A stretch of 64,000 nt of DNA, taken from the IMG/VR virus record IMGVR_UViG_3300028591_000148, positions 29,239-93,238 of that record. One strand, 5' to 3'. This DNA is from a virus. Taxonomy: Duplodnaviria; Caudoviricetes. Position 1 is the first letter of the stretch. Each line of letters begins with the position of its first letter. This document shows positions 29,135-43,704 of this stretch, piece by piece. Both the position numbers and the translations under genes were made by a program. The notes beneath the pieces were generated by a model that saw only the letters and a program-made list of their open reading frames with translations, was not told the origin of the DNA and searched no databases.

Positions 29135-29630
29135 GTGTGTTTTTCCTCCTACAATATTCTTCACAATCTTCTTGTGTTATATAAAAAACATCTGAGCAAG
29201 GTAATTCCAGATGTTCTTCACTAAATTTATCGTATATATTCGTTTCTCTAATGGATAAGAACGAATCATTATAAGTACAATCATAAAATATAACATTATT
29301 TTGAATAGACATATTAGTAACAATAATTTCTTCCGTTTTATAATTGGATTTATATTCTCTACAGCTACACAGTTTATAGGAAACAGAGAAAGAATTATCA
29401 ACTAATACTAATCCATCTTTATTACATTTATTACATTTCTTAGAACGTACATATTGTATCATGGGTCGATAAATAGTACACAGTCTAAACTTATTAAGAG
29501 ATGTACTAGGTTTATCTACCTCGGCAAGTTTATTCTTATAATCAGAAACTTCTTTTCTTAATGAGTCTATATAGTTTAGAATACCAATTTTTGTCTCAAT
29601 ATCCTCTTGTAAATAATCTCTTGGATTCAT
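29121..29630 (-). CDS. Hypothetical protein with CxxC..CxC
   Basis: 169 aa ORF. Confidence 0.55.
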   Translation of the reverse strand: MNPRDYLQEDIETKIGILNYIDSLRKEVSDYKNKLAEVDKPSTSLNKFRLCTIYRPMIQYVRSKKCNKCNKDGLVLVDNSFSVSYKLCSCREYKSNYKTEEIIVTNMSIQNNVIFYDCTYNDSFLSIRETNIYDKFSEEHLELPCSDVFYITQEDCEEYCRRKNTHEKI

Positions 29631-29655
29631 TCATTTCCCCTTCTTAACATAATTT

Positions 29656-29857
29656 TGGGAACCTCCCTCATATACGAAAAATATACAAGGGAGGCTGGAA
29701 CTTTCGTACCATTCACCGGAGGTGTTGTTCCCACAGGAAGTTCTAGGATAGGAGGTCGAGAACCCATGGACAAAAAATGGCATTCTTCTAGAATCTAAAC
29801 TTTTGAACTTCCAAGCGATCTAGATTCTACTCGACATGACCCAACAAAGCTGGGTGT
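29656..29857 (-). ncRNA. Candidate structured RNA downstream of tRNA-Phe
   Basis: Several helices plus an 8-bp loop-to-downstream pairing (29805-29812 with 29736-29743). Confidence 0.5.
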
Positions 29858-29933
29858 TGGTGTCCCGGAACAGAATCGAACTGTTGACACGGGGATTTTC
29901 AGTCCCCTGCTCTACCATCTGAGCTACCGAGAC
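29858..29933 (-). tRNA. tRNA-Phe(GAA), CCA encoded
   Basis: Cloverleaf; anticodon loop CT-GAA-AA. Confidence 0.93.
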
Positions 29934-29939
29934 AAATAA

Positions 29940-30023
29940 CGGAAGGAGAGGGACTCGAACCCTCGCACCTTACGGTCTAACGGTTTAGCAAACCGTCCCC
30001 TTCACCAGCTTGGGTATCCTTCC
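29940..30023 (-). tRNA. tRNA-Ser(GCT)
   Basis: Loop TT-GCT-AA, long variable arm. Confidence 0.92.
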
Positions 30024-30027
30024 TAAA

Positions 30028-30099
30028 AGTGGATGAAGGGAATTGAACCCTCATTACCTGCTTGGAAGGCAGGAGTCTTAACCATTCGACGACATCCAC
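30028..30099 (-). tRNA. tRNA-Gly(TCC)
   Basis: Loop CT-TCC-AA. Confidence 0.9.
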
Positions 30100-30103
30100 A
30101 AAG

Positions 30104-30177
30104 TCCTCACAGTAGGACTCGAACCTGCGACCTACCGCTTAGAAGGCGGTTGCTCTATCCAACTGAGCTATGTGAGG
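30104..30177 (-). tRNA. tRNA-Arg(TCT)
   Basis: Loop CT-TCT-AA. Confidence 0.92.
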
Positions 30178-30180
30178 AGA

Positions 30181-30591
30181 TTAACTACAATTATGACAAG
30201 TGTAATGACTACCATCGATAAATAATTGTCCAGACCAATTTGTATGAACATTAGGTAAATATAATCTAAATGTATCGATTATCATTTCTTTTATTATAGA
30301 TGTATTTATACACTTATCCATATAAACATTTGATTCGTATATAACTGTTCCATTCACTTGTTTATGGGGTAGTACCTCAACTCTTCCTCTCGGAAAATAG
30401 TCATAAGGAACAGATTTACCATTTACGATACATTCGTTTTTTAATGTTTCCCAAGATTTCTTGTGAAGTAAGTTTGTCATAAAATATGGATCATTAGGAT
30501 CAACTGGATCTGTTAATGCTACTAGTTCGTTATCTATAACCCAAAATATTCCTTCACAAGGAACTTGTAGACTTTCATAAACCATCATCAT
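30181..30591 (-). CDS. Hypothetical protein inserted in the tRNA array
   Basis: GIFWV..H...W..YDYFPRGRV..HYTCHNC. Confidence 0.65.
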   Translation of the reverse strand: MMMVYESLQVPCEGIFWVIDNELVALTDPVDPNDPYFMTNLLHKKSWETLKNECIVNGKSVPYDYFPRGRVEVLPHKQVNGTVIYESNVYMDKCINTSIIKEMIIDTFRLYLPNVHTNWSGQLFIDGSHYTCHNCS

Positions 30592-30668
30592 TTATCATCC
30601 TTATTCATAATACAGCAAGAATATAGAATTAATGTCATGAATACAGCTACAAATAAAATAACTTTCAT
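30588..30668 (-). CDS. 26-aa hydrophobic peptide MKVILFVAVFMTLILYSCCIMNKDDK
   Basis: AAGGAGG RBS; ATGA overlap with the next ORF; not in the ORF track. Confidence 0.6.
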   Translation of the reverse strand: MKVILFVAVFMTLILYSCCIMNKDDK

Positions 30669-30696
30669 ATATTATTCCTCCTTTATGGAGAAGAAA

Positions 30697-30780
30697 TGGA
30701 AGAGATTGGATTCGAACCAATGAAGCACATAGGCAACAGATTTACAGTCTGCCCCCTTTGACCAACTCGGGAACTCTTCC
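30697..30780 (-). tRNA. tRNA-Tyr(GTA)
   Basis: Loop CT-GTA-AA, long variable arm. Confidence 0.92.
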
Positions 30781-30793
30781 AAATTATATTTAA

Positions 30794-30926
30794 TGCCGGG
30801 TGAGTAGTTTCAACCTCACGCATTCCCGTCCAGAGTTACATAACCTTTTTAACGGAGTTGGTCCTCCGAATGTTCTGTCGTAGGGACTGTATTTTCTTTT
30901 CGACTTTTAATGCTTGTCTACCGACA
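30794..30926 (-). ncRNA. Candidate ~133-nt structured RNA with H-type pseudoknot
   Basis: TGTCGG/CCGGCA closing stem, GCATT/AATGC, GTGAG/CTCAC, CGGAG-GACCAA-CTCCG-TTAAAAA-GGTT. Confidence 0.55.
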
Positions 30927-30936
30927 ATAAATATAA

Positions 30937-31011
30937 TGACCCTAACGGGATTCGAACCCATGTTTTCAGAATGAAAATCTGACGTCCTAGACCAGACTAG
31001 ACGATAGGGCC
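30937..31011 (-). tRNA. tRNA-Glu(TTC)
   Basis: Loop TT-TTC-AT. Confidence 0.9.
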
Positions 31012-31013
31012 GG

Positions 31014-31101
31014 TGGTTGTCGTGGCTGGATTCGAACCAGCGTAAAGCACATACTGCTGGCGGAGTCAAAGTCCGCTGCCTTTCCACTTGGCGACACGAC
31101 A
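31014..31101 (-). tRNA. tRNA-Gln(TTG) with atypical long variable arm, CCA encoded
   Basis: Loop CT-TTG-AC; 18-nt variable region. Confidence 0.85.
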
Positions 31102-31109
31102 ATAACGAA

Positions 31110-31191
31110 TACTACCTGTGGGACTTGAACCCACATTCCTTTCGGAACTGGTTTTTGAGACCAGTGCGTATGCCAATTCCGCCAAGGTAGT
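31110..31191 (-). tRNA. tRNA-Leu(CAA)
   Basis: Loop CT-CAA-AA, variable arm. Confidence 0.9.
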
Positions 31192-31201
31192 AGTATAAGA
31201 A

Positions 31202-31276
31202 TCGGAATGACAGGATTTGAACCTGCGACATCCTGCTCCCAAAGCAGGTGATCTAGCCAAACTGATCTACATTCCG
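31202..31276 (-). tRNA. tRNA-Pro(TGG)
   Basis: Loop TT-TGG-GA. Confidence 0.92.
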
Positions 31277-31278
31277 AA

Positions 31279-31500
31279 ATGTCACTAAACATTTCTATTC
31301 AGTGACATCTAGACTACTTTTCTTATGTAGTCTACAGAACCCTTATTCAGCTTAAGAATATCCTATTAGGGTGTGTCCATCAACTAGTTGAACAAATCAA
31401 CTTTTTTAGTTTACTCTACTTTATGGACAAACAATCTTGGTTTTCGATTGCTACATCTAATCCTGATATTCTAGGATTTTGATGTATTTCAAGTAAACTA
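31279..31500 (-). ncRNA. Candidate multi-hairpin RNA
   Basis: Six or more adjacent inverted repeats plus a 9-bp long-range pairing 31407-31415/31492-31500; strand inferred from the operon. Confidence 0.45.
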
Positions 31501-31503
31501 TAA

Positions 31504-31587
31504 TGCTGCTGACCGGACTTGAACCGGTACGGTGTATCCACCGAGAGATTTTAAGTCTCTTGCGTCTGCCGATTTCGCCACAGCAGC
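31504..31587 (-). tRNA. tRNA-Leu(TAA)
   Basis: Loop CT-TAA-AA, variable arm. Confidence 0.92.
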
Positions 31588-31595
31588 AAATATTA

Positions 31596-31667
31596 AGACA
31601 AGGGTGAGATTCGAACTCACGATCGTGGTGTTGCAGACCACTGTCTTAACCTCTTGACTACCTTGTC
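31596..31667 (-). tRNA. tRNA-Cys(GCA)
   Basis: Loop CT-GCA-AC. Confidence 0.9.
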
Positions 31668-31668
31668 G

Positions 31669-31740
31669 TTATGTGAATCTGTTTTGTATGTACGCCGATA
31701 ATCGTTCTTTCAAAATTATTCGTGTAACAGATTCACATAA
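31669..31740. repeat. Perfect 15-bp inverted repeat filling a tRNA spacer
   Basis: ttatgtgaatctgtt (31669-31683) / aacagattcacataa (31726-31740). Confidence 0.8.
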
Positions 31741-31742
31741 AA

Positions 31743-31815
31743 TGGGATTGGACAGGATTCGAACCTGCGATCTGGGCTTTGTGTGCCCTTGCCTTACCCA
31801 CTTGGCTACAATCCC
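31743..31815 (-). tRNA. tRNA-like gene with non-canonical anticodon loop ACACAAA (nominal anticodon ACA)
   Basis: Intact acceptor (GGGATTG/CAATCCC), D and T arms; lacks U33. Confidence 0.75.
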
Positions 31816-31818
31816 TAG

Positions 31819-32029
31819 TGGAACACCAGTACCTCTCCCTTTCGACCGATGTATTAACGAACTCCACCTAAATCCGTCCTGTAAGACCTAGTACAGGAAA
31901 TATCATTTAAATATAACAGGCGTCCCTGCTTCCTATTTAACCCATAAGTGGAGTAAGGTTTTACTGCTTACCTTCAAACATCGTCATCTAGGTCCGGATC
32001 CTAAATGATTCCAGGTAACTAGGATTACC
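31819..32029 (-). ncRNA. Candidate ~210-nt multi-branched RNA
   Basis: TGGAA/TTCCA, TCATTTAGG/CCTAGATGA, CGATGT/ACATCG, ACTCCACTTA/TAGGTGGAGT, TCCTGTA/TACAGGA; G-U pairs form only on the minus strand. Confidence 0.55.
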
Positions 32030-32034
32030 CTTGA

Positions 32035-32107
32035 AGCTGGATGACGGACTCGAACCCCCGACCTGCTGATTACAAATCAGCTGCTCTACCAACTGAGCTA
32101 ATCCAGC
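32035..32107 (-). tRNA. tRNA-Thr(TGT)
   Basis: Loop TT-TGT-AA. Confidence 0.92.
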
Positions 32108-32110
32108 AAA

Positions 32111-32297
32111 GTGTCTGTCTATCCAGACTGTCATAAGGCACTGCCACTTATGTTACCGTCTACCGTAAGCCTTATTCCCCTCTCGACGACCATTAACGGA
32201 GTGGTCCATTCCGGATGTCTTGTTAAGGTACAAACTCTTAAACCTTACTTTCTCAAGGTTATTTTATAGAACCGTTTGATATAAGTAATAAACCTTT
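32111..32297 (-). ncRNA. Candidate structured RNA with a pseudoknot related to the one at 30842-30876
   Basis: CGGA-ATGGACCAC-TCCG-TTAA-TGGTC; ATAAGGC/GCCTTAT; terminal GTCTG-GATAGA-CAGAC. Confidence 0.5.
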
Positions 32298-32306
32298 CAG
32301 TTCTTT

Positions 32307-32382
32307 TGGCTCCCGTAGACAGACTCGAACTGCCGACTTGATCATTAACAGTGACCCGTTCTACCAACTGAACTATACGGGA
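32307..32382 (-). tRNA. tRNA-Asn(GTT), CCA encoded
   Basis: Loop CT-GTT-AA. Confidence 0.9.
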
Positions 32383-32386
32383 ATGA

Positions 32387-32463
32387 TAGGAACCCGGGGA
32401 CTCGAACCCCGACAAAGACATGGCTTATAAGGCCACCGCTCTCACCGGTTGAGCTAGGCTCCC
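32387..32463 (-). tRNA. tRNA-Ile(TAT)
   Basis: GTGGC-CT-TAT-AA-GCCAT anticodon arm. Confidence 0.88.
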
Positions 32464-32485
32464 ATATAATATGTGTTATATTTAT

Positions 32486-32514
32486 ATAATAACACATATT
32501 GCATTAAAAGTCAA
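32486..32514 (-). promoter_or_regulatory. Promoter of the tRNA array, TTGACT-N17-TATTAT
   Basis: Same family as the others; -10 lies inside the inverted repeat aatatgtgttat/ataacacatatt. Confidence 0.65.
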
Positions 32515-32527
32515 GTAGTTTATAAAA

Positions 32528-32901
32528 GATTATGATTACAAAGCAGCCACGAGGAAACCTATACGGTCATGAGATTAACCCGTAAACCTTTTACCGTGGA
32601 TTTTGTAAAACCTTATACTTTTCTCTTTACGTTTTAACCTTTATATGTAACTAATATTTGATGTTTAAGGTTTTAACTTTGAGCTATAATCTTTAAACTT
32701 TCTAGCTGAATGAAGTGGATTCGAACCACGACTGGATTGGTAGTCCAGTGCTTTCCAAATTATATAACTCTCAACCAAAGAAAGTTTGAAAGTTCTTTAA
32801 AATCTCAATTATTGGCGAGATCTTCAAGAATATATAGCTCTCTATTAACGCTTAGAGAATAACGAATCTCAATTTATAGTTTTCGCTTTGCAATCACAAC
32901 C
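32528..32901 (-). ncRNA. Candidate ~375-nt ncRNA with 17-bp closing helix, heptamer array and embedded tRNA-like element
   Basis: GGTTGTGATTGCAAAGC pairs with GCTTTGTAATCATAATC (14 WC + 3 G-U); 12 AAAGnTT-like heptamers. Confidence 0.7.
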
Positions 32902-32911
32902 CCAAACTCAA

Positions 32912-33562
32912 TTAACACTCAAACTCAATTATAGTTACCGCGTTAGATGTAGAAAGTGCTGCATCAACTTTCGTATTATAGAAATCAAGTTCGTTTTTGA
33001 GTTCTTCAATCTTTTCTTTAAGATTGTTAGGATCAAGCAAGTCCGTTGTGTTAGCGGCAATATAAGCATCCCTGCTTGTCTTAACAATGGTACCATCAAT
33101 ACCTTCCTTATTACCAAACAGACTTGTGACATATCTGTCAGCAAGGTCTTCAATGGCACTATTGTTATTATTCACTCTGTTAATAGCAGTTTTAAATTGA
33201 TTAGCGAGTGTTTTTACTAACTTCTCAACAAATGTAAGACCGACATTCTTGTACTCAATAAGTTCGGCAACTGTCATAGTAATGGTAGTTCCGTTTTCTT
33301 TAGTAAGTGTAACAGGTGTTACAGCATTACTCTTTGTGATAGCCTTCTTAATGGCATTTCTGCGTTTAATAAGGTCTTCAACCTTTTGCAATGCGGACTT
33401 CATGGACTGGTTATATTCCTCAATACTTTTACCCTCAATCTTTGTGTTTGCGTGTTTGTTACAATTAATAAACACATTGGAGTCCAATTCCTTTTCAATT
33501 CTTTCCGCCAGAACTTTAAGTTCAGCCAGACCTTCGTGAACGGTCATTGAATACTTTGTCAT
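32912..33562 (-). CDS. Coiled-coil protein with two-fold internal repeat (possibly DIP1984/DUF6847-like)
   Basis: MTVHEGLAELK..SNAVTPV and MTVAELIEYK..SNAVTII halves; GGAGG RBS; family resemblance is from memory. Confidence 0.7.
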   Translation of the reverse strand: MTKYSMTVHEGLAELKVLAERIEKELDSNVFINCNKHANTKIEGKSIEEYNQSMKSALQKVEDLIKRRNAIKKAITKSNAVTPVTLTKENGTTITMTVAELIEYKNVGLTFVEKLVKTLANQFKTAINRVNNNNSAIEDLADRYVTSLFGNKEGIDGTIVKTSRDAYIAANTTDLLDPNNLKEKIEELKNELDFYNTKVDAALSTSNAVTIIEFEC

Positions 33563-33606
33563 AATAGTCTTCCTCCATGAAATTTAAGATTTTATATTAA
33601 TTGATA

Positions 33607-33679
33607 TGGGCATTAGCGGATTCGAACCGCTGACTTTCTCCTTAAAAGGGAGTTACTCTACCAACTGAGTTAAATGCCC
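33607..33679 (-). tRNA. tRNA-Lys(TTT)
   Basis: Loop CT-TTT-AA. Confidence 0.9.
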
Positions 33680-33805
33680 CTATACAACCTTTAAAACCCT
33701 ACATCGTAGGTAAAACTTGGTTGAATTTAGTTTTATTAAAGGAGAATGGAATGAGATGGACAGTCGTTTTTTATTTCCTTTATCACTATCCGTGTTTACA
33801 AACAT

Positions 33806-33834
33806 ATTATAACACATTATTCAGATATTGTCAA
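33806..33834 (-). promoter_or_regulatory. Perfect sigma-A promoter TTGACA-N17-TATAAT
   Basis: Exact consensus with TG extension. Confidence 0.85.
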
Positions 33835-33867
33835 GTACTTTTTGAAATTTTCTTTTTATTTTTATAT

Positions 33868-34290
33868 TTAATTTTTAACTACTCTTTTCACTTCTGTTTC
33901 TGGAGAAAGTATAACTGGATCCCCTGTGTTAGGGAATGCGATAACAAAATCACCTTTTGTTGTTTCGTGCACTTTATAACAGTTGAATTTATAAAAGAAC
34001 TGCTCACCTTGCTTCAGTTCTCCGAGTTTCACAGAGAAATTTGGAATAGGAATTCTTTTATATCTTGCCCAGGCAATAGCAATACCTGTTTTTGGATTAT
34101 ATTTGTCAGTTTCTTTGCATTTAACAGAAGCTGTTTTTCCAGTCTTACTATTCATAATAAAAACTGTGGTACTTTTATCTGAATTAATAAAAACATCCTG
34201 GTGAAGATTAACTGTTTTTATAGTTTCCTTTATATAATCCATCCACATTGAATAACACCATTCATCGAATGTTTTGCAGTTTTTTCTCAT
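33868..34290 (-). CDS. Hypothetical protein
   Basis: C...DKYNPKTGIAIAWARY; GAGG RBS. Confidence 0.6.
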   Translation of the reverse strand: MRKNCKTFDEWCYSMWMDYIKETIKTVNLHQDVFINSDKSTTVFIMNSKTGKTASVKCKETDKYNPKTGIAIAWARYKRIPIPNFSVKLGELKQGEQFFYKFNCYKVHETTKGDFVIAFPNTGDPVILSPETEVKRVVKN

Positions 34291-34351
34291 GATAACACCT
34301 CAATAATAGACTTTTTTACCTTTCTGTCACATAATTTCTGTTTACAATAAT

Positions 34352-34380
34352 AGTATAACATATTTTTAGTATTTTGTCAA
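34352..34380 (-). promoter_or_regulatory. Sigma-A-type promoter TTGACA-N17-TATACT
   Basis: Consensus match. Confidence 0.8.
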
Positions 34381-34401
34381 GTAGTTTTTGAAAAATGAAT
34401 A

Positions 34402-34434
34402 TAAAAAGTCCTCCTAGTAACAGGAGGACTTTTT
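34402..34434. terminator. Intrinsic terminator
   Basis: aaaaagtcctcct-agtaac-aggaggacttttt. Confidence 0.8.
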
Positions 34435-34452
34435 GTGAAATATACACAACAC

Positions 34453-35094
34453 TTATCCTAATTTACCTTTTAGGTTTTCATTTTCCCAAACATAAGTTGC
34501 CATCATGTCTGCTCTATGTAATGCAAATGCTAAAGTATTTTTAGCAAAGGACTCACTTAAATTACCAACTGTACTGTATTGAGATAAGTCATAAGCTCCC
34601 ATATGCCAATATATTGCTTGTGCTTCTTCGTCTGTTAATTTAATGAATTTTTGAATCCTATATACAGATAATGCCCCGTGACCCATCTGGAAAGAATCTG
34701 TATTGTAATTATAGCAATCTACTGTATCCCATCTACCTGTTTCTGGATCTTTTACATTTTTAGTTCCTTTTACATATTTACCAGCTTTGCAAACATCATG
34801 AAGTAGACTGACAATAGTTGCAGATTCTAAAGAATGATATTGTTGCCACTTATCTTTACCACCATAAATAAAGGAGAGTTCATCTAGCATAGAGTAATAA
34901 ACATTCATGGAGTGGTCACATAAACCACCTTCATAGCTCCCATGATATTTAGTGCTTGCAGGTGATGTATAAAAACCCACTTCTTCTAGATATACAAATA
35001 AATCAGGTACGCCTGGTCTATTTATGTTATCACTCATTGTTTTAATAAATGCACTCTTACTGCTTTCCATCTGTATTAAACTCCTTCCATTCAT
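34453..35094 (-). CDS. HD-domain phosphohydrolase
   Basis: PASTKYHGSYEGGLCDHS, LLHDVCK, GHG, WHMG, HRAD. Confidence 0.85.
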   Translation of the reverse strand: MNGRSLIQMESSKSAFIKTMSDNINRPGVPDLFVYLEEVGFYTSPASTKYHGSYEGGLCDHSMNVYYSMLDELSFIYGGKDKWQQYHSLESATIVSLLHDVCKAGKYVKGTKNVKDPETGRWDTVDCYNYNTDSFQMGHGALSVYRIQKFIKLTDEEAQAIYWHMGAYDLSQYSTVGNLSESFAKNTLAFALHRADMMATYVWENENLKGKLG

Positions 35095-42598: not shown

Positions 42599-43241
42599 CG
42601 AACATATTGTTATTCTTTATATATTCGACAATATCGGAGGGTTCTATACTTCCAAAAACAGGACTTACAAAAATATGGGGTAGATCTTCTGAAGAATAGG
42701 ATTCTTTAATAAGGTCTACTACACGTTTCATATCATCCAGATCTTCATTAGTACCTACTACGAATTTAACTACATCCCAGCTATCCAAACTCTCTGTGAA
42801 GTTAGATACAATCATTTGATGATTAGCTCCGCTTGAAATAGACTTATAATCAACTGTAAATATAAGTTTATCCCATAAATAGGATGCTTCACTTGTGAAC
42901 AATGCTTTCTTAAACAGTCCGATATCTACAGCACCACTTGTTTCTACATTAACTTCGAAACCTTCGTCTAGAAGCTCCTCGATAAGCTGTAACATTTCAG
43001 GTTGAACAAGTGGTTCGCCACCTGTAAGAGTTACATAAGGTGTTCCTTGTTCTTTACAATAGTCTACGATTTCGGAAACAGTAAGGTCTTTTATCTCAAC
43101 ACCTGCTGTAACTTCATTAGAATACATACTATCACAAAAAACGCAACGACAAGGACACCCAAAGGTTCTAATAAAAGTTGCGATTCGACCTGTACGAATA
43201 CCTTCACCTTCAATGGATTTAAACATTTCGGTTATCTTCAT
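42537..43241 (-). CDS. queE: 7-carboxy-7-deazaguanine synthase (radical SAM)
   Basis: SIEGEG, CPCRCVFCD, TGGEPL, ETSG, QLQIHK; start at MKITEMF. Confidence 0.92.
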   Translation of the reverse strand: MKITEMFKSIEGEGIRTGRIATFIRTFGCPCRCVFCDSMYSNEVTAGVEIKDLTVSEIVDYCKEQGTPYVTLTGGEPLVQPEMLQLIEELLDEGFEVNVETSGAVDIGLFKKALFTSEASYLWDKLIFTVDYKSISSGANHQMIVSNFTESLDSWDVVKFVVGTNEDLDDMKRVVDLIKESYSSEDLPHIFVSPVFGSIEPSDIVEYIKNNNMFDVRMQLQIHKYIWDFNARGV

Positions 43242-43245
43242 ATTA

Positions 43246-43704
43246 TTACCCTCTTCTCCATGTAGCATGAGAATTAGTAGTTTCCCAAAGTTTAATTTCG
43301 TCCACAGTACATTCCATCCCTGGATAAGTAATATCCAAAAGTTTCTGAATGTCTTTCGCAAAAACTTTTGTCATATTTTCTGCAGAAGGAGCTTTATCCA
43401 TTTCAAAAACTCTCATATTATTCTGTTTAAGAATACCTACGATTTGCCCTTCTACTGTATCCTTACCGTTAGATACATTAGTAATAAAACTATGATCGGG
43501 TACATAGTCTTTAAGAAGTTGATTTAACTTACTAAAATCTACTACGAAGTTAAACTTATTTTGATTTCTTTCGTACTCTGGACAACTAATTGTAACTTCC
43601 AGTTTATAGGAGTGTCCATGTAGGTTACCACAGAGTCCTTCGTAACCATAAAGAAGATGTGCTGCCTCAAACTCTACATGACGAGTAACACTAATACGAT
43701 CCAA
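43246..43704 (-). CDS. queD: 6-carboxy-5,6,7,8-tetrahydropterin synthase
   Basis: FEAAH..CGNLHGHSY, DF, DH, SAEN, WET. Confidence 0.92.
   Translation of the reverse strand: MDRISVTRHVEFEAAHLLYGYEGLCGNLHGHSYKLEVTISCPEYERNQNKFNFVVDFSKLNQLLKDYVPDHSFITNVSNGKDTVEGQIVGILKQNNMRVFEMDKAPSAENMTKVFAKDIQKLLDITYPGMECTVDEIKLWETTNSHATWRRG

Follow-up and report, generated by a model that had tools for sequence, protein, structure and literature searches.

Here we describe a structured RNA encoded on the minus strand of a 64,000-nt stretch of phage DNA (Duplodnaviria; Caudoviricetes; positions 29,239 to 93,238 of IMG/VR virus record IMGVR_UViG_3300028591_000148), which we call the window and whose numbering we use throughout. 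The RNA, 374 nt long, lies just behind a gene for a 216-aa protein, hereafter the partner gene, and sequence comparison places it as a divergent member of an RNA class that is widespread in phages. That it is a real homolog of the other members we regard as close to certain, and a functional link between the RNA and the partner gene as highly probable. Our favoured reading, which we hold at about even strength, is that the transcript is a stable, doubly pseudoknotted RNA representing the full-length form of the RAGATH-27 class, in which an array of unpaired 7-nt units docks dimers of the co-encoded protein to give a ribonucleoprotein (RNP). Direct binding of the protein to the array, taken by itself, looks similarly balanced.

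The minimum-free-energy (MFE) fold of positions 32520–32910 reached −102.9 kcal/mol (z = −5.18; none of 100 shuffles was as low) and included a 17-bp helix that joins the two ends of the molecule, which occurs once in the 93-kb virus record. Comparison with related loci, numbered from L001, resolved the following elements:

32528–32901, minus strand: full-length structured RNA, 374 nt, delimited by MFE, closing-helix search, alignment, covariation and a match to model R1 (described below).
32885–32901, minus strand: 5′ strand of the closing helix P1, GGTTGTGATTGCAAAGC; the helix is 88% paired over 28 sequences, and 15 of its 17 pairs change on both sides.
32528–32544, minus strand: 3′ strand of P1, GCTTTGTAATCATAATC, directly after a conserved GGCT, RRGCU in the class (partner search and covariation).
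32875–32884, minus strand: 5′ strand of P2 with the conserved GAAAAC, whose core AAACT (32882–32878) forms a pseudoknot with 32555–32559; 80% paired, with covarying variants such as AACCTA/TAGGTT and AAATCT/AGATTT.
32554–32563, minus strand: 3′ strand of P2, core GGTTT (32559–32555), within P4 (covariation).
32865–32871, minus strand: 5′ strand of PK2, TGAGATT, whose partner is the P5 loop; 95% paired, with 7 of 7 pairs changing on both sides.
32838–32859, minus strand: hairpin P3, TTCTCTA/TAGAGAG, with loop AGCGTTAA.
32801–32822, minus strand: subclade-specific hairpin GATCTC/GAGATT with loop GCCAATAATT; the stem covaries, by eye, in L238, L239 and L240.
32707–32770, minus strand: tRNA-like module in the variable region, an anticodon-arm-like hairpin plus a T arm GTGG-TTCGAAT-CCAC and no D arm; it scores 17.9 bits with the tRNA model, below the 29-bit cut-off, and ARAGORN is silent.
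32653–32701, minus strand: array block 1, seven units AAAGTTT AAAGATT ATAGCTC AAAGTTA AAACCTT AAACATC AAATATT (sequence, alignment and autocorrelation).
32608–32642, minus strand: array block 2, after a 10-nt spacer, five units AAAGGTT AAAACGT AAAGAGA AAAGTAT AAGGTTT (sequence and alignment).
32547–32599, minus strand: 3′ domain, comprising P4a CCACG/CGTGG (100% paired), P4b AGG/CCT (89%) and P5 TACGG/CCGTA (83%), the loop of which holds AATCTCA (32576–32570).

A first-pass annotation, made by a model from the letters of the window alone, had already drawn part of this picture. The closing helix that it described is present, with GGTTGTGATTGCAAAGC (32901–32885) pairing at 17 of 17 positions with GCTTTGTAATCATAATC (32544–32528), three G-U pairs among them, as are the helices CCACG/CGTGG (32599–32595 with 32551–32547) and TACGG/CCGTA (32584–32580 with 32566–32562). 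Its proposed continuation of the closing helix, GAAAACTATA/TATAGGTTTC, turned out to be a pseudoknot instead, because the 3′ strand falls within the CCACG/CGTGG helix; the conserved core in the window is AAACT/GGTTT. The annotation had further matched the P5 loop to two upstream copies of TGAGAT. The loop AATCTCA (32576–32570) does complement TGAGATT at 32871–32865, but the copy at 32806–32801 is the 3′ arm of the local hairpin GATCTC/GAGATT. When shuffled sequence by sequence, the PK2 pairing has no significance alone, and it is significant only as covariation across sequences. One more pairing, PK1, in which P3-loop bases pair downstream, is 48% paired in the MAFFT register and forms a 7–10-bp run in 19 of the 27 other sequences; it is not evident in the window, where the best such pairing is just 4 bp.

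The evidence for this structure comes from relatives of the partner gene, which is found in 265 phage GenBank records (tblastn), 232 IMG/VR stretches (retrieved with a 25-member protein alignment, A1) and 262 protein clusters (word-index search). Single-protein searches of IMG/VR contigs and of metagenome contigs found no relatives, and alignments A1 and A4 were used instead; a DNA search of a phage collection with 1.6 kb of the window matched tRNA genes only. From the best 80 of the 232 stretches, together with Dulem virus 39, Vibrio phage Pontus and the window, we obtained 55 distinct downstream sequences, 50 of which carry a GAAAAC-type anchor no more than 120 nt from the stop codon. We then took the 20 nt before the anchor and searched, without prior assumption, all positions from 120 nt downstream for their best pairing partner. 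The partner lay directly after a conserved ..GCT in 47 of the 50 anchored sequences; two others (L025 and L061) fitted on re-anchoring, and the helix was weak in L004. All 55 sequences, the window included, carry the RNA (50 anchored and 5 further by R1 match; L002 by a weak match), which ties the RNA to the upstream gene.

For a structural alignment (A2) we used 28 of the 55 sequences, the other 27 being near-duplicates or lacking a simple anchor. RNAalifold, unaided, returned P1, P3 and P4, in which both sides change in 25 of the 30 pairs, and left the array unpaired; P2, PK2 and PK1 were added by reading A2. Across the resulting 57 pairs in eight helices, 84.0% of positions were paired, compared with 64.0% in shuffled alignments (0 of 500 reached the observed value) and 35–42% in slid controls, while 49 of the 57 pairs changed on both sides and the covariation score was 0.614 versus 0.242. 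Two features temper these comparisons: P2, PK2, PK1 and P5 were derived from members of A2 itself, which favours the unslid structure, and kinship among the A2 sequences inflates the shuffle control. Because the observed value stands so far above the controls and each column shows many types of pair, we consider the RNA structure, as read from sequence covariation, secure despite these caveats. Every helix covaries, which argues for a discrete selected RNA rather than a DNA palindrome, as the first-pass annotation had supposed.

An independent model gave the same answer. R1 covers the 3′ domain (91 positions, 12 pairs) and was built from 27 sequences with the window excluded; in the 64-kb window it has a single match, at 32528–32617 on the minus strand (67 bits, E 3.1e-11). 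It also matches five unanchored IMG/VR loci (L004, L024, L026, L029 and L033; E 1e-9 to 4e-7), 26 of 29 loci from bacterial assemblies, mostly contigs of Clostridia metagenome-assembled genomes, plus isolates such as Flavonifractor, Ruminococcus and Flintibacter (in the three that it misses, the contig is truncated or the gene partial), and, at E ≤ 0.01, 27 of 38 metagenome loci, where the 11 misses comprise four truncated contigs and seven loci of a variant clade discussed below. The idea that the interval has no function and consists of decayed tRNA genes plus chance complementarity in an AT-rich spacer could draw on the weak tRNA-model match inside the RNA (17.9 bits), but it is refuted by covariation in eight helices, by the R1 match and by conservation from gut phages to phage T5, and we give it practically no chance.

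The heptamer array is as regular as the first-pass annotation had it, with seven units at 32701–32653, a 10-nt spacer and five units at 32642–32608. A-to-A autocorrelation is maximal at a lag of 7 in 28 of 28 aligned RNAs (z = 3.3 in the window), so that the 7-nt periodicity is conserved, and RNAalifold keeps the array unpaired. In most members block 1 consists of seven GNUYAAA units in perfect register, followed by a spacer of 10–14 nt and about five further units, and the unpaired track measures 105–111 nt in 18 of the 28 sequences. A 14-base pattern for the array start occurs in at least 120 IMG/VR stretches. Among the matches listed, 20 hold a true array, and in 19 of these the partner gene lies 187–311 nt upstream, the remaining one (L181) being cut by the locus start; the other 100 listed matches have neither the gene nor the 7-unit register, and 12 that we inspected by eye were unrelated and mostly coding-looking. 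Pairing of block 1 with block 2 was considered and rejected, since RNAalifold leaves both unpaired and the units would allow at most four A-U pairs in seven. RNase E-type sites, Hfq ARN triplets and Shine-Dalgarno mimics were likewise set aside as identities for the units, none of them suiting the GC-richer members (L006 and L072).

The window, L003, L021 and the closer relatives L238–L241 form one subclade with two additions to the common plan: the extra covarying hairpin and, right before the array, the two-hairpin tRNA-like module with a canonical T loop. Within the subclade the window, L238 and L239 share the P3 loop GCGTTAA, and the T arm of the module is kept in L238 and L240. At the site of the module, L021 carries a complete tRNA-Ile(GAU) at 2273–2346 (Rfam 53.8 bits), within an RNA spanning 2166–2592; if RNase P and RNase Z process this tRNA, the RNA would fall into two halves still joined by P1, P2 and PK2. 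In another locus the 3′ domain (L217:2862–2950) lies ~725 nt past the gene end, making the RNA about twice the usual length, and it may hold a large insert.

The partner protein matches the phrog_1491 profile almost end to end (E 1.9e-47; residues 5–215 on positions 4–210 of 211). It is the two-fold repeat that had been noticed in the first pass, with MTV at 6–8 and SNAVT at 78–82 recurring as MTV at 96–98 and SNAVT at 206–210, the second motif in the fuller form STSNAVT (204–210). An AlphaFold2 model (pLDDT 81, pTM 0.72) shows long helical hairpins, twice, plus small strands. The protein is also predicted to form a symmetric homodimer, with an ipSAE of 0.69 against 0.00 for the best of three controls; three runs shared at least 97% of contacts (partner pLDDT 90), and the ipSAE mark, reached in calibration by 20 of 30 solved homomers and 1 of 23 single chains, holds only roughly with a custom alignment. 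The proposed oligomerization is thus borne out by modelling as self-association only. S78, N79, T82 and residues 204–210 are absent from the listed dimer interface residues, although an unlisted residue is merely uncertain.

Family searches placed the protein nowhere familiar. Sequence searches of Pfam, NCBIfam and the PDB yielded nothing beyond weak matches of coiled-coil type, with no Pfam family; in NCBIfam the match was alpha-xenorhabdolysin subunit A (E 2.7e-4; 20 bits, where the cut-off is 125). A search of BFVD structures returned uncharacterised phage proteins only, and the Atlas unnamed clusters. DIP1984/DUF6847 (PF20935), suggested in the first pass as a possible relative, was not among the nine Pfam families at E ≤ 10, and 0 of 25 family members matched it at E ≤ 0.01; the Corynebacterium diphtheriae structure 3kdq_C was a weak Foldseek match (rank 13, E 0.31, TM 0.24/0.33), and an Atlas cluster bearing DUF6847 (score 0.86) is a lead only. 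The annotation of phrog_1491 as a 'tail fiber protein' looks inherited and is probably mistaken. The gene lies among tRNA and early-type genes, outside any structural module, and the predicted helical bundle has no fibre-like match.

A variant clade of seven metagenome loci (L265–L271), whose proteins are 32–36% identical to that of the window, bears on the relation between array and protein. By eye these loci keep P1, P2, PK2, P3, PK1 and P4, and instead of A-rich (YAAAGNU) units their arrays consist of 12 contiguous UUAUUNR heptamers (for example L265:2099–2182), about 50% T, with a lag-7 z of 3.5–4.9. In all seven the protein carries S78Y, T82Q, S204Q, S206A and T210H/N and retains N79, A80, N207 and A208. 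Seven cultured-phage homologs at similar or greater distance, which have A-type or weakened A-type arrays, all keep S78, N79, A80, T82, N207 and T210, and six of them keep S204; many residues that never vary in the gut clade, such as H9, H37 and K41, have been lost from these homologs. We tallied motif against array in 122 distinct loci with at least 300 nt downstream, setting the array type by motif counts; A-versus-T content mis-typed 11 A-type, weakened or degenerate arrays as 'U'. The S..T/S..T motif (106 loci) goes with 103 A-type arrays, three weaker ones and no U-type, and Y..Q/Q..H(N) with seven U-type arrays and no A-type, while nine loci with single changes or alignment gaps have seven A-type and two weak arrays. 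This co-variation in sequence is suggestive rather than statistical.

The same arrangement extends to cultured phages. In all seven records that we opened (Vibrio Pontus, Pseudomonas phiPsa374, Bacillus BCP78, Salmonella PVP-SE1, Clostridioides difficile AR1086-1, Lactococcus phiL47 and T5) the gene is followed by an unannotated gap of 360–550 nt, which by eye holds P1, the array and the 3′ domain in each case. R1 finds the RNA in the C. difficile phage (E 5e-6) and in BCP78 and phiL47 (both 7e-4). In T5 the RNA lies behind T5.085 at L208:13143–13505 on the minus strand (about 43,142–43,504 of the record), with P1 paired at 17 of 17 positions and the gap reaching an annotated promoter. Eight other 'stable RNAs of unknown function' are named in the part of the T5 record that we listed, but the one behind T5.085 is not annotated.

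In the window, the gene and RNA belong to a tRNA island of 16 tRNA genes on the minus strand at 29.8–33.7 kb (ARAGORN), within a linear 93-kb record (CheckV completeness 65%) whose best DNA matches among public runs are sheep and bovine gut metagenomes, the top run of which may be the record's own source. DNA runs with only a small share of the stretch carry no information on habitat. The neighbouring features are:

33806–33834, minus strand: promoter-like site TTGACA-17-TATAAT with TG extension, matching 12 of 12 consensus positions (consensus match only).
33607–33679, minus strand: tRNA-Lys(UUU), first gene of the unit (ARAGORN; Rfam 71.3 bits).
32912–33562, minus strand: partner gene, 216 aa, a phrog_1491 member and homolog of T5.085 of T5 (open reading frame, profile match, and a record note naming T5.085).
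32486–32514, minus strand: next promoter-like site, TTGACT-17-TATTAT, ahead of the following tRNA genes and beginning 14 nt past the RNA end.

Read along the minus strand, the order is promoter-like site (33834–33806), tRNA-Lys, the 216-aa reading frame (33562–32912), the 374-nt gap, promoter-like site (32514–32486) and the next tRNAs; phage T5 keeps an equivalent order of gene, gap and annotated promoter. The unit of tRNA-Lys, gene and RNA likely starts at the site at 33806–33834, as far as consensus sequence can tell. This is, as the first-pass annotation stated, the sole exact TTGACA-N16-18-TATAAT in the window, with tRNA-Lys between it and the gene, but 14 of 100 shuffles also yield at least one such site. 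Some members of the island stand out in other ways. A tRNA called as Cys with anticodon ACA (31743–31815, minus strand) has the lowest tRNA score of the island, 41.7 bits, and adjoins a normal tRNA-Cys(GCA) at 31596–31667; tRNA-Gln(UUG) at 31014–31101 (minus strand) is 88 nt, an unusual length for a Gln tRNA; and spacers of 150–225 nt between tRNA genes (30782–30936, 31278–31502, 31816–32034 and 32108–32306, minus strand) have no Rfam match at gathering score. In one IMG/VR phage, ARAGORN called a suppressor-type tRNA (anticodon UUA; L031:1326–1397) right upstream of the partner gene.

An alternative reading is that the RNA acts only in cis, as a 3′ element belonging to the mRNA ahead of it or to the tRNA operon, and has no function in trans. 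P1 would then serve as a stabiliser or as a stem for RNase III or other processing, fixing the ends of the transcript and keeping the gene apart from whichever promoter or tRNA comes next. The spacing is suited to such a role: the partner gene stop codon, TAA, is at 32912–32914, the RNA begins with GGTTGTGATTGCAAAGC only 10 nt on and ends 14 nt before the next promoter-like site, and a search for a terminator-like site in the gene-RNA interval of the window found none. In L001, L003, L021 and L031 a tRNA starts 2–8 nt past P1, so that RNase P would cut there. However, ~300 nt of conserved pseudoknots and a fixed set of about 12 heptamers would be needless for a processing stem, and the better cover of the RNA than of the gene in RNA-library contigs is in keeping with a stable species separate from the mRNA; we judge a purely cis-acting role unlikely.

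Those contigs come from three RNA-library runs in two studies that hold parts of the stretch. Two, from the same sample, fall inside the RNA bounds, at 32579–32893 (315 nt, depth 8.7) and 32564–32887 (324 nt, depth 6.4), and a third, from a size-fractionated library of the other study, spans 32597–32748 (154 nt), while the gene is covered only by two shorter contigs of depth 2.7–3.3 in one run. Uncovered parts of the window in these runs are no evidence of silence. The cover is a hint of a stable RNA, not proof.

Under the RNP reading that we favour, transcription from the promoter at 33834 would run through tRNA-Lys and the 216-aa gene into the RNA. In the fold shown by covariation, P1 brings both ends together, and P2 (GAAAAC region/GGUU) and PK2 (TGAGAUU/P5 loop) tie the conserved 5′ single strand to the 3′ domain. 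The knotted core presents an unpaired track of ~100 nt with 7+5 units (YAAAGNU). This track is a putative docking site for partner-protein dimers, which may read it through their two SNAxT motifs, and the product would be a defined ribonucleoprotein particle, formed early in infection. Such a particle may act on tRNA or translation, as its place in a tRNA island and the tRNA-like insert suggest.

Several observations weigh against this picture. The protein is mildly acidic (pI 5.1–6.9 in 25 of 25 members); Foldseek against the PDB found nothing at E ≤ 0.001 and no known RNA-binding fold; and the top hits of a wide structure search (VIA; Z 9.0) are syntaxin-type bundles within noise for helical models. 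All of the array-motif co-variation comes from one clade, which counts as a single evolutionary event and which in any case differs at 20 of the 56 conserved positions. Among the cultured phages, R1 is weak in Pontus (E 0.089) and T5 (E 0.13), both at the expected place, and has no match in phiPsa374 or PVP-SE1, where the RNA was recognised by eye. Terminator-like hairpins with a T run, identified by eye, stand between gene and RNA in BCP78 (L204:630–650), in the C. difficile phage (L206:2118–2145) and at the downstream start of L004, so the level of the RNA may be set apart from that of the mRNA in these three. The RNA-library contigs give neither RNA ends nor strand, and DNA carry-over in such libraries is possible. 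Lastly, the array could equally bind a host factor.

That last point leads to an alternative in which the RNA works without the neighbouring protein, either as an RNA-only particle or as a decoy or sponge for a host factor (ribosome/S1, Hfq, a single-strand RNase or a tRNA-directed defence nuclease), the gene being a co-transcribed helper in the same pathway. The acidic character of the protein and its want of an RNA-binding fold fit this view. So does precedent: ROOL and GOLLD lie near tRNA islands, have no known protein partner and assemble as RNA alone, and GOLLD sometimes carries linker tRNAs (10.1101/2024.12.08.627333; PMC5737381). The heptamer-array RNA likewise sits in tRNA islands and holds a tRNA-like insert or, in L021, a whole tRNA. 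Two observations argue the other way. In phages of both Firmicutes and Proteobacteria the RNA is strictly syntenic with a single protein family, at ~29–37% protein identity, and ROOL and GOLLD are not reported to have such a partner; the array-type switch also coincides with changes in the protein's most conserved motifs. We consider this alternative rather unlikely, and the docking of protein dimers on the array remains the reading that we prefer.

The first-pass annotation had also raised a toxin-antitoxin-like or defence/anti-defence module; on the pattern of type III systems, the protein would be neutralised by the repeat RNA or would process it. All that speaks for this is the overall layout, in which a phage carries a protein gene beside a repeat-bearing RNA. 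The units are 7 nt, not tandem 34–36-nt pseudoknot repeats; the RNA is downstream of the gene, not upstream; protein family searches gave no nuclease or toxin match; and lytic phages such as T5 keep the pair as part of their vertically conserved core, not as a sporadic island. Tandem repeats of ~34–36 nt upstream of an endoRNase toxin gene, as in type III toxin-antitoxin systems, are not present in the window, and the protein family searches, with no PADLOC scan made, held no pointer to defence, anti-defence or toxin-antitoxin function. We regard such a module as very improbable.

The system was put forward in the first pass as undescribed; this holds in part only, since Rfam RF03100 (RAGATH-27) already covers the 5′ 86 nt of the class. 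RF03100 is an orphan candidate sRNA motif of 86 positions with one annotated helix, its first 46 positions being annotated as unpaired. It matches the first 84–88 nt of the RNA class in 4 of 20 loci scanned (L055, 94.7 bits; L036, 90.3; L031, 88.0; L001, which is Dulem virus 39, 77.2), beginning about 11–35 nt past the partner gene stop. Compared with the full molecule, the 'unpaired' consensus of RF03100 contains the 5′ strands of P1, P2 and PK2, and its sole annotated helix is PK1; the model spans about a quarter of the RNA and lacks P1, P2, PK2, the heptamer array and the 3′ domain. RF03100 itself has no match at E ≤ 10 within 29500–34500 and none in the whole window at the gathering score (76.1 bits). 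The conserved 5′ block of RAGATH-27, CGAAAACYUNNAAAY, appears in the window as GCGAAAACTATAAAT at 32886–32872, aligned in A2. The full architecture, the heptamer track and the partner gene were in no paper found by our literature search, which returned nothing on the RAGATH-27 motif or T5.085, though the supplements of PMC5737381 may describe RAGATH-27, and nothing relevant on the T5 transcriptome and stable RNAs. Two other small RNAs lie near members of the class: a type II hammerhead ribozyme ~3.5 kb upstream of the gene-RNA pair in Dulem virus 39 (L001:483–547), and a RAGATH-36 RNA (103 bits) ~1 kb upstream of the pair in L006 (428–555).

We tentatively propose, at somewhat less than even confidence, that these elements make up a new kind of phage RNP, in which a knotted scaffold offers a 12-site, 7-nt track to a dimeric helical protein that reads it through SNAxT-type motifs, with unit and motif residues co-evolving (AAAG with S..T; UUAUU with Y..Q/Q..H). 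If true, this would be a simple, re-settable rule of protein-RNA recognition, and a particle made early by T5-like and many other large phages, probably for tRNA or translation. The array swap with matching motif changes in the variant clade lends itself to a concrete test of specificity. For databases, the RNA behind the gene is an annotation gap in all seven cultured-phage records, and RF03100 describes just a quarter of the molecule. Holders of the gene include the model phage T5, PVP-SE1, phiPsa374, BCP78, Lactococcus 949-type phages and a C. difficile phage.

Among known systems, the proposed mode of reading resembles that of TRAP and HutP, ring-shaped or oligomeric proteins that read short repeats on single-stranded RNA (GAG/UAG repeats for TRAP, and NAG repeats spaced about 7 nt for HutP). 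The resemblance lies in a 3–4-nt motif repeated many times at even intervals along unpaired RNA, each protein site taking one copy, and, for HutP, in the use of two blocks of sites. In contrast, neither protein is related in sequence or fold to the partner protein, and their targets are host operon leaders, whereas the array here belongs to a stand-alone knotted phage RNA. Type III toxin-antitoxin systems of the ToxIN type, in which repeats of ~34–36 nt each fold as a pseudoknot upstream of an endoRNase toxin gene, share a protein gene beside a repeat RNA and a phage-related setting, and differ in repeat length, in the position of the RNA and in the endoRNase. The OLE ribonucleoprotein also pairs a large conserved RNA with genetically linked protein partners (10.1101/2024.12.08.627333), but its RNA and proteins are different ones and come from chromosomes of extremophile bacteria, not from phages. 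Finally, GOLLD and ROOL are likewise large and pseudoknotted; they occur in phages and prophages, often within tRNA islands, and GOLLD sometimes has linker tRNAs (10.1101/2024.12.08.627333; PMC5737381). Neither of their Rfam models matches in the window. They resemble the heptamer-array RNA in setting and complexity and differ from it in that they are not known to have a heptamer track or a conserved neighbouring protein gene and are reported to assemble from RNA alone. All three classes raise the question of what ornate RNAs do in the tRNA islands of large phages, and the heptamer class, with an obvious protein partner and a culturable Escherichia coli system, makes that question directly testable.

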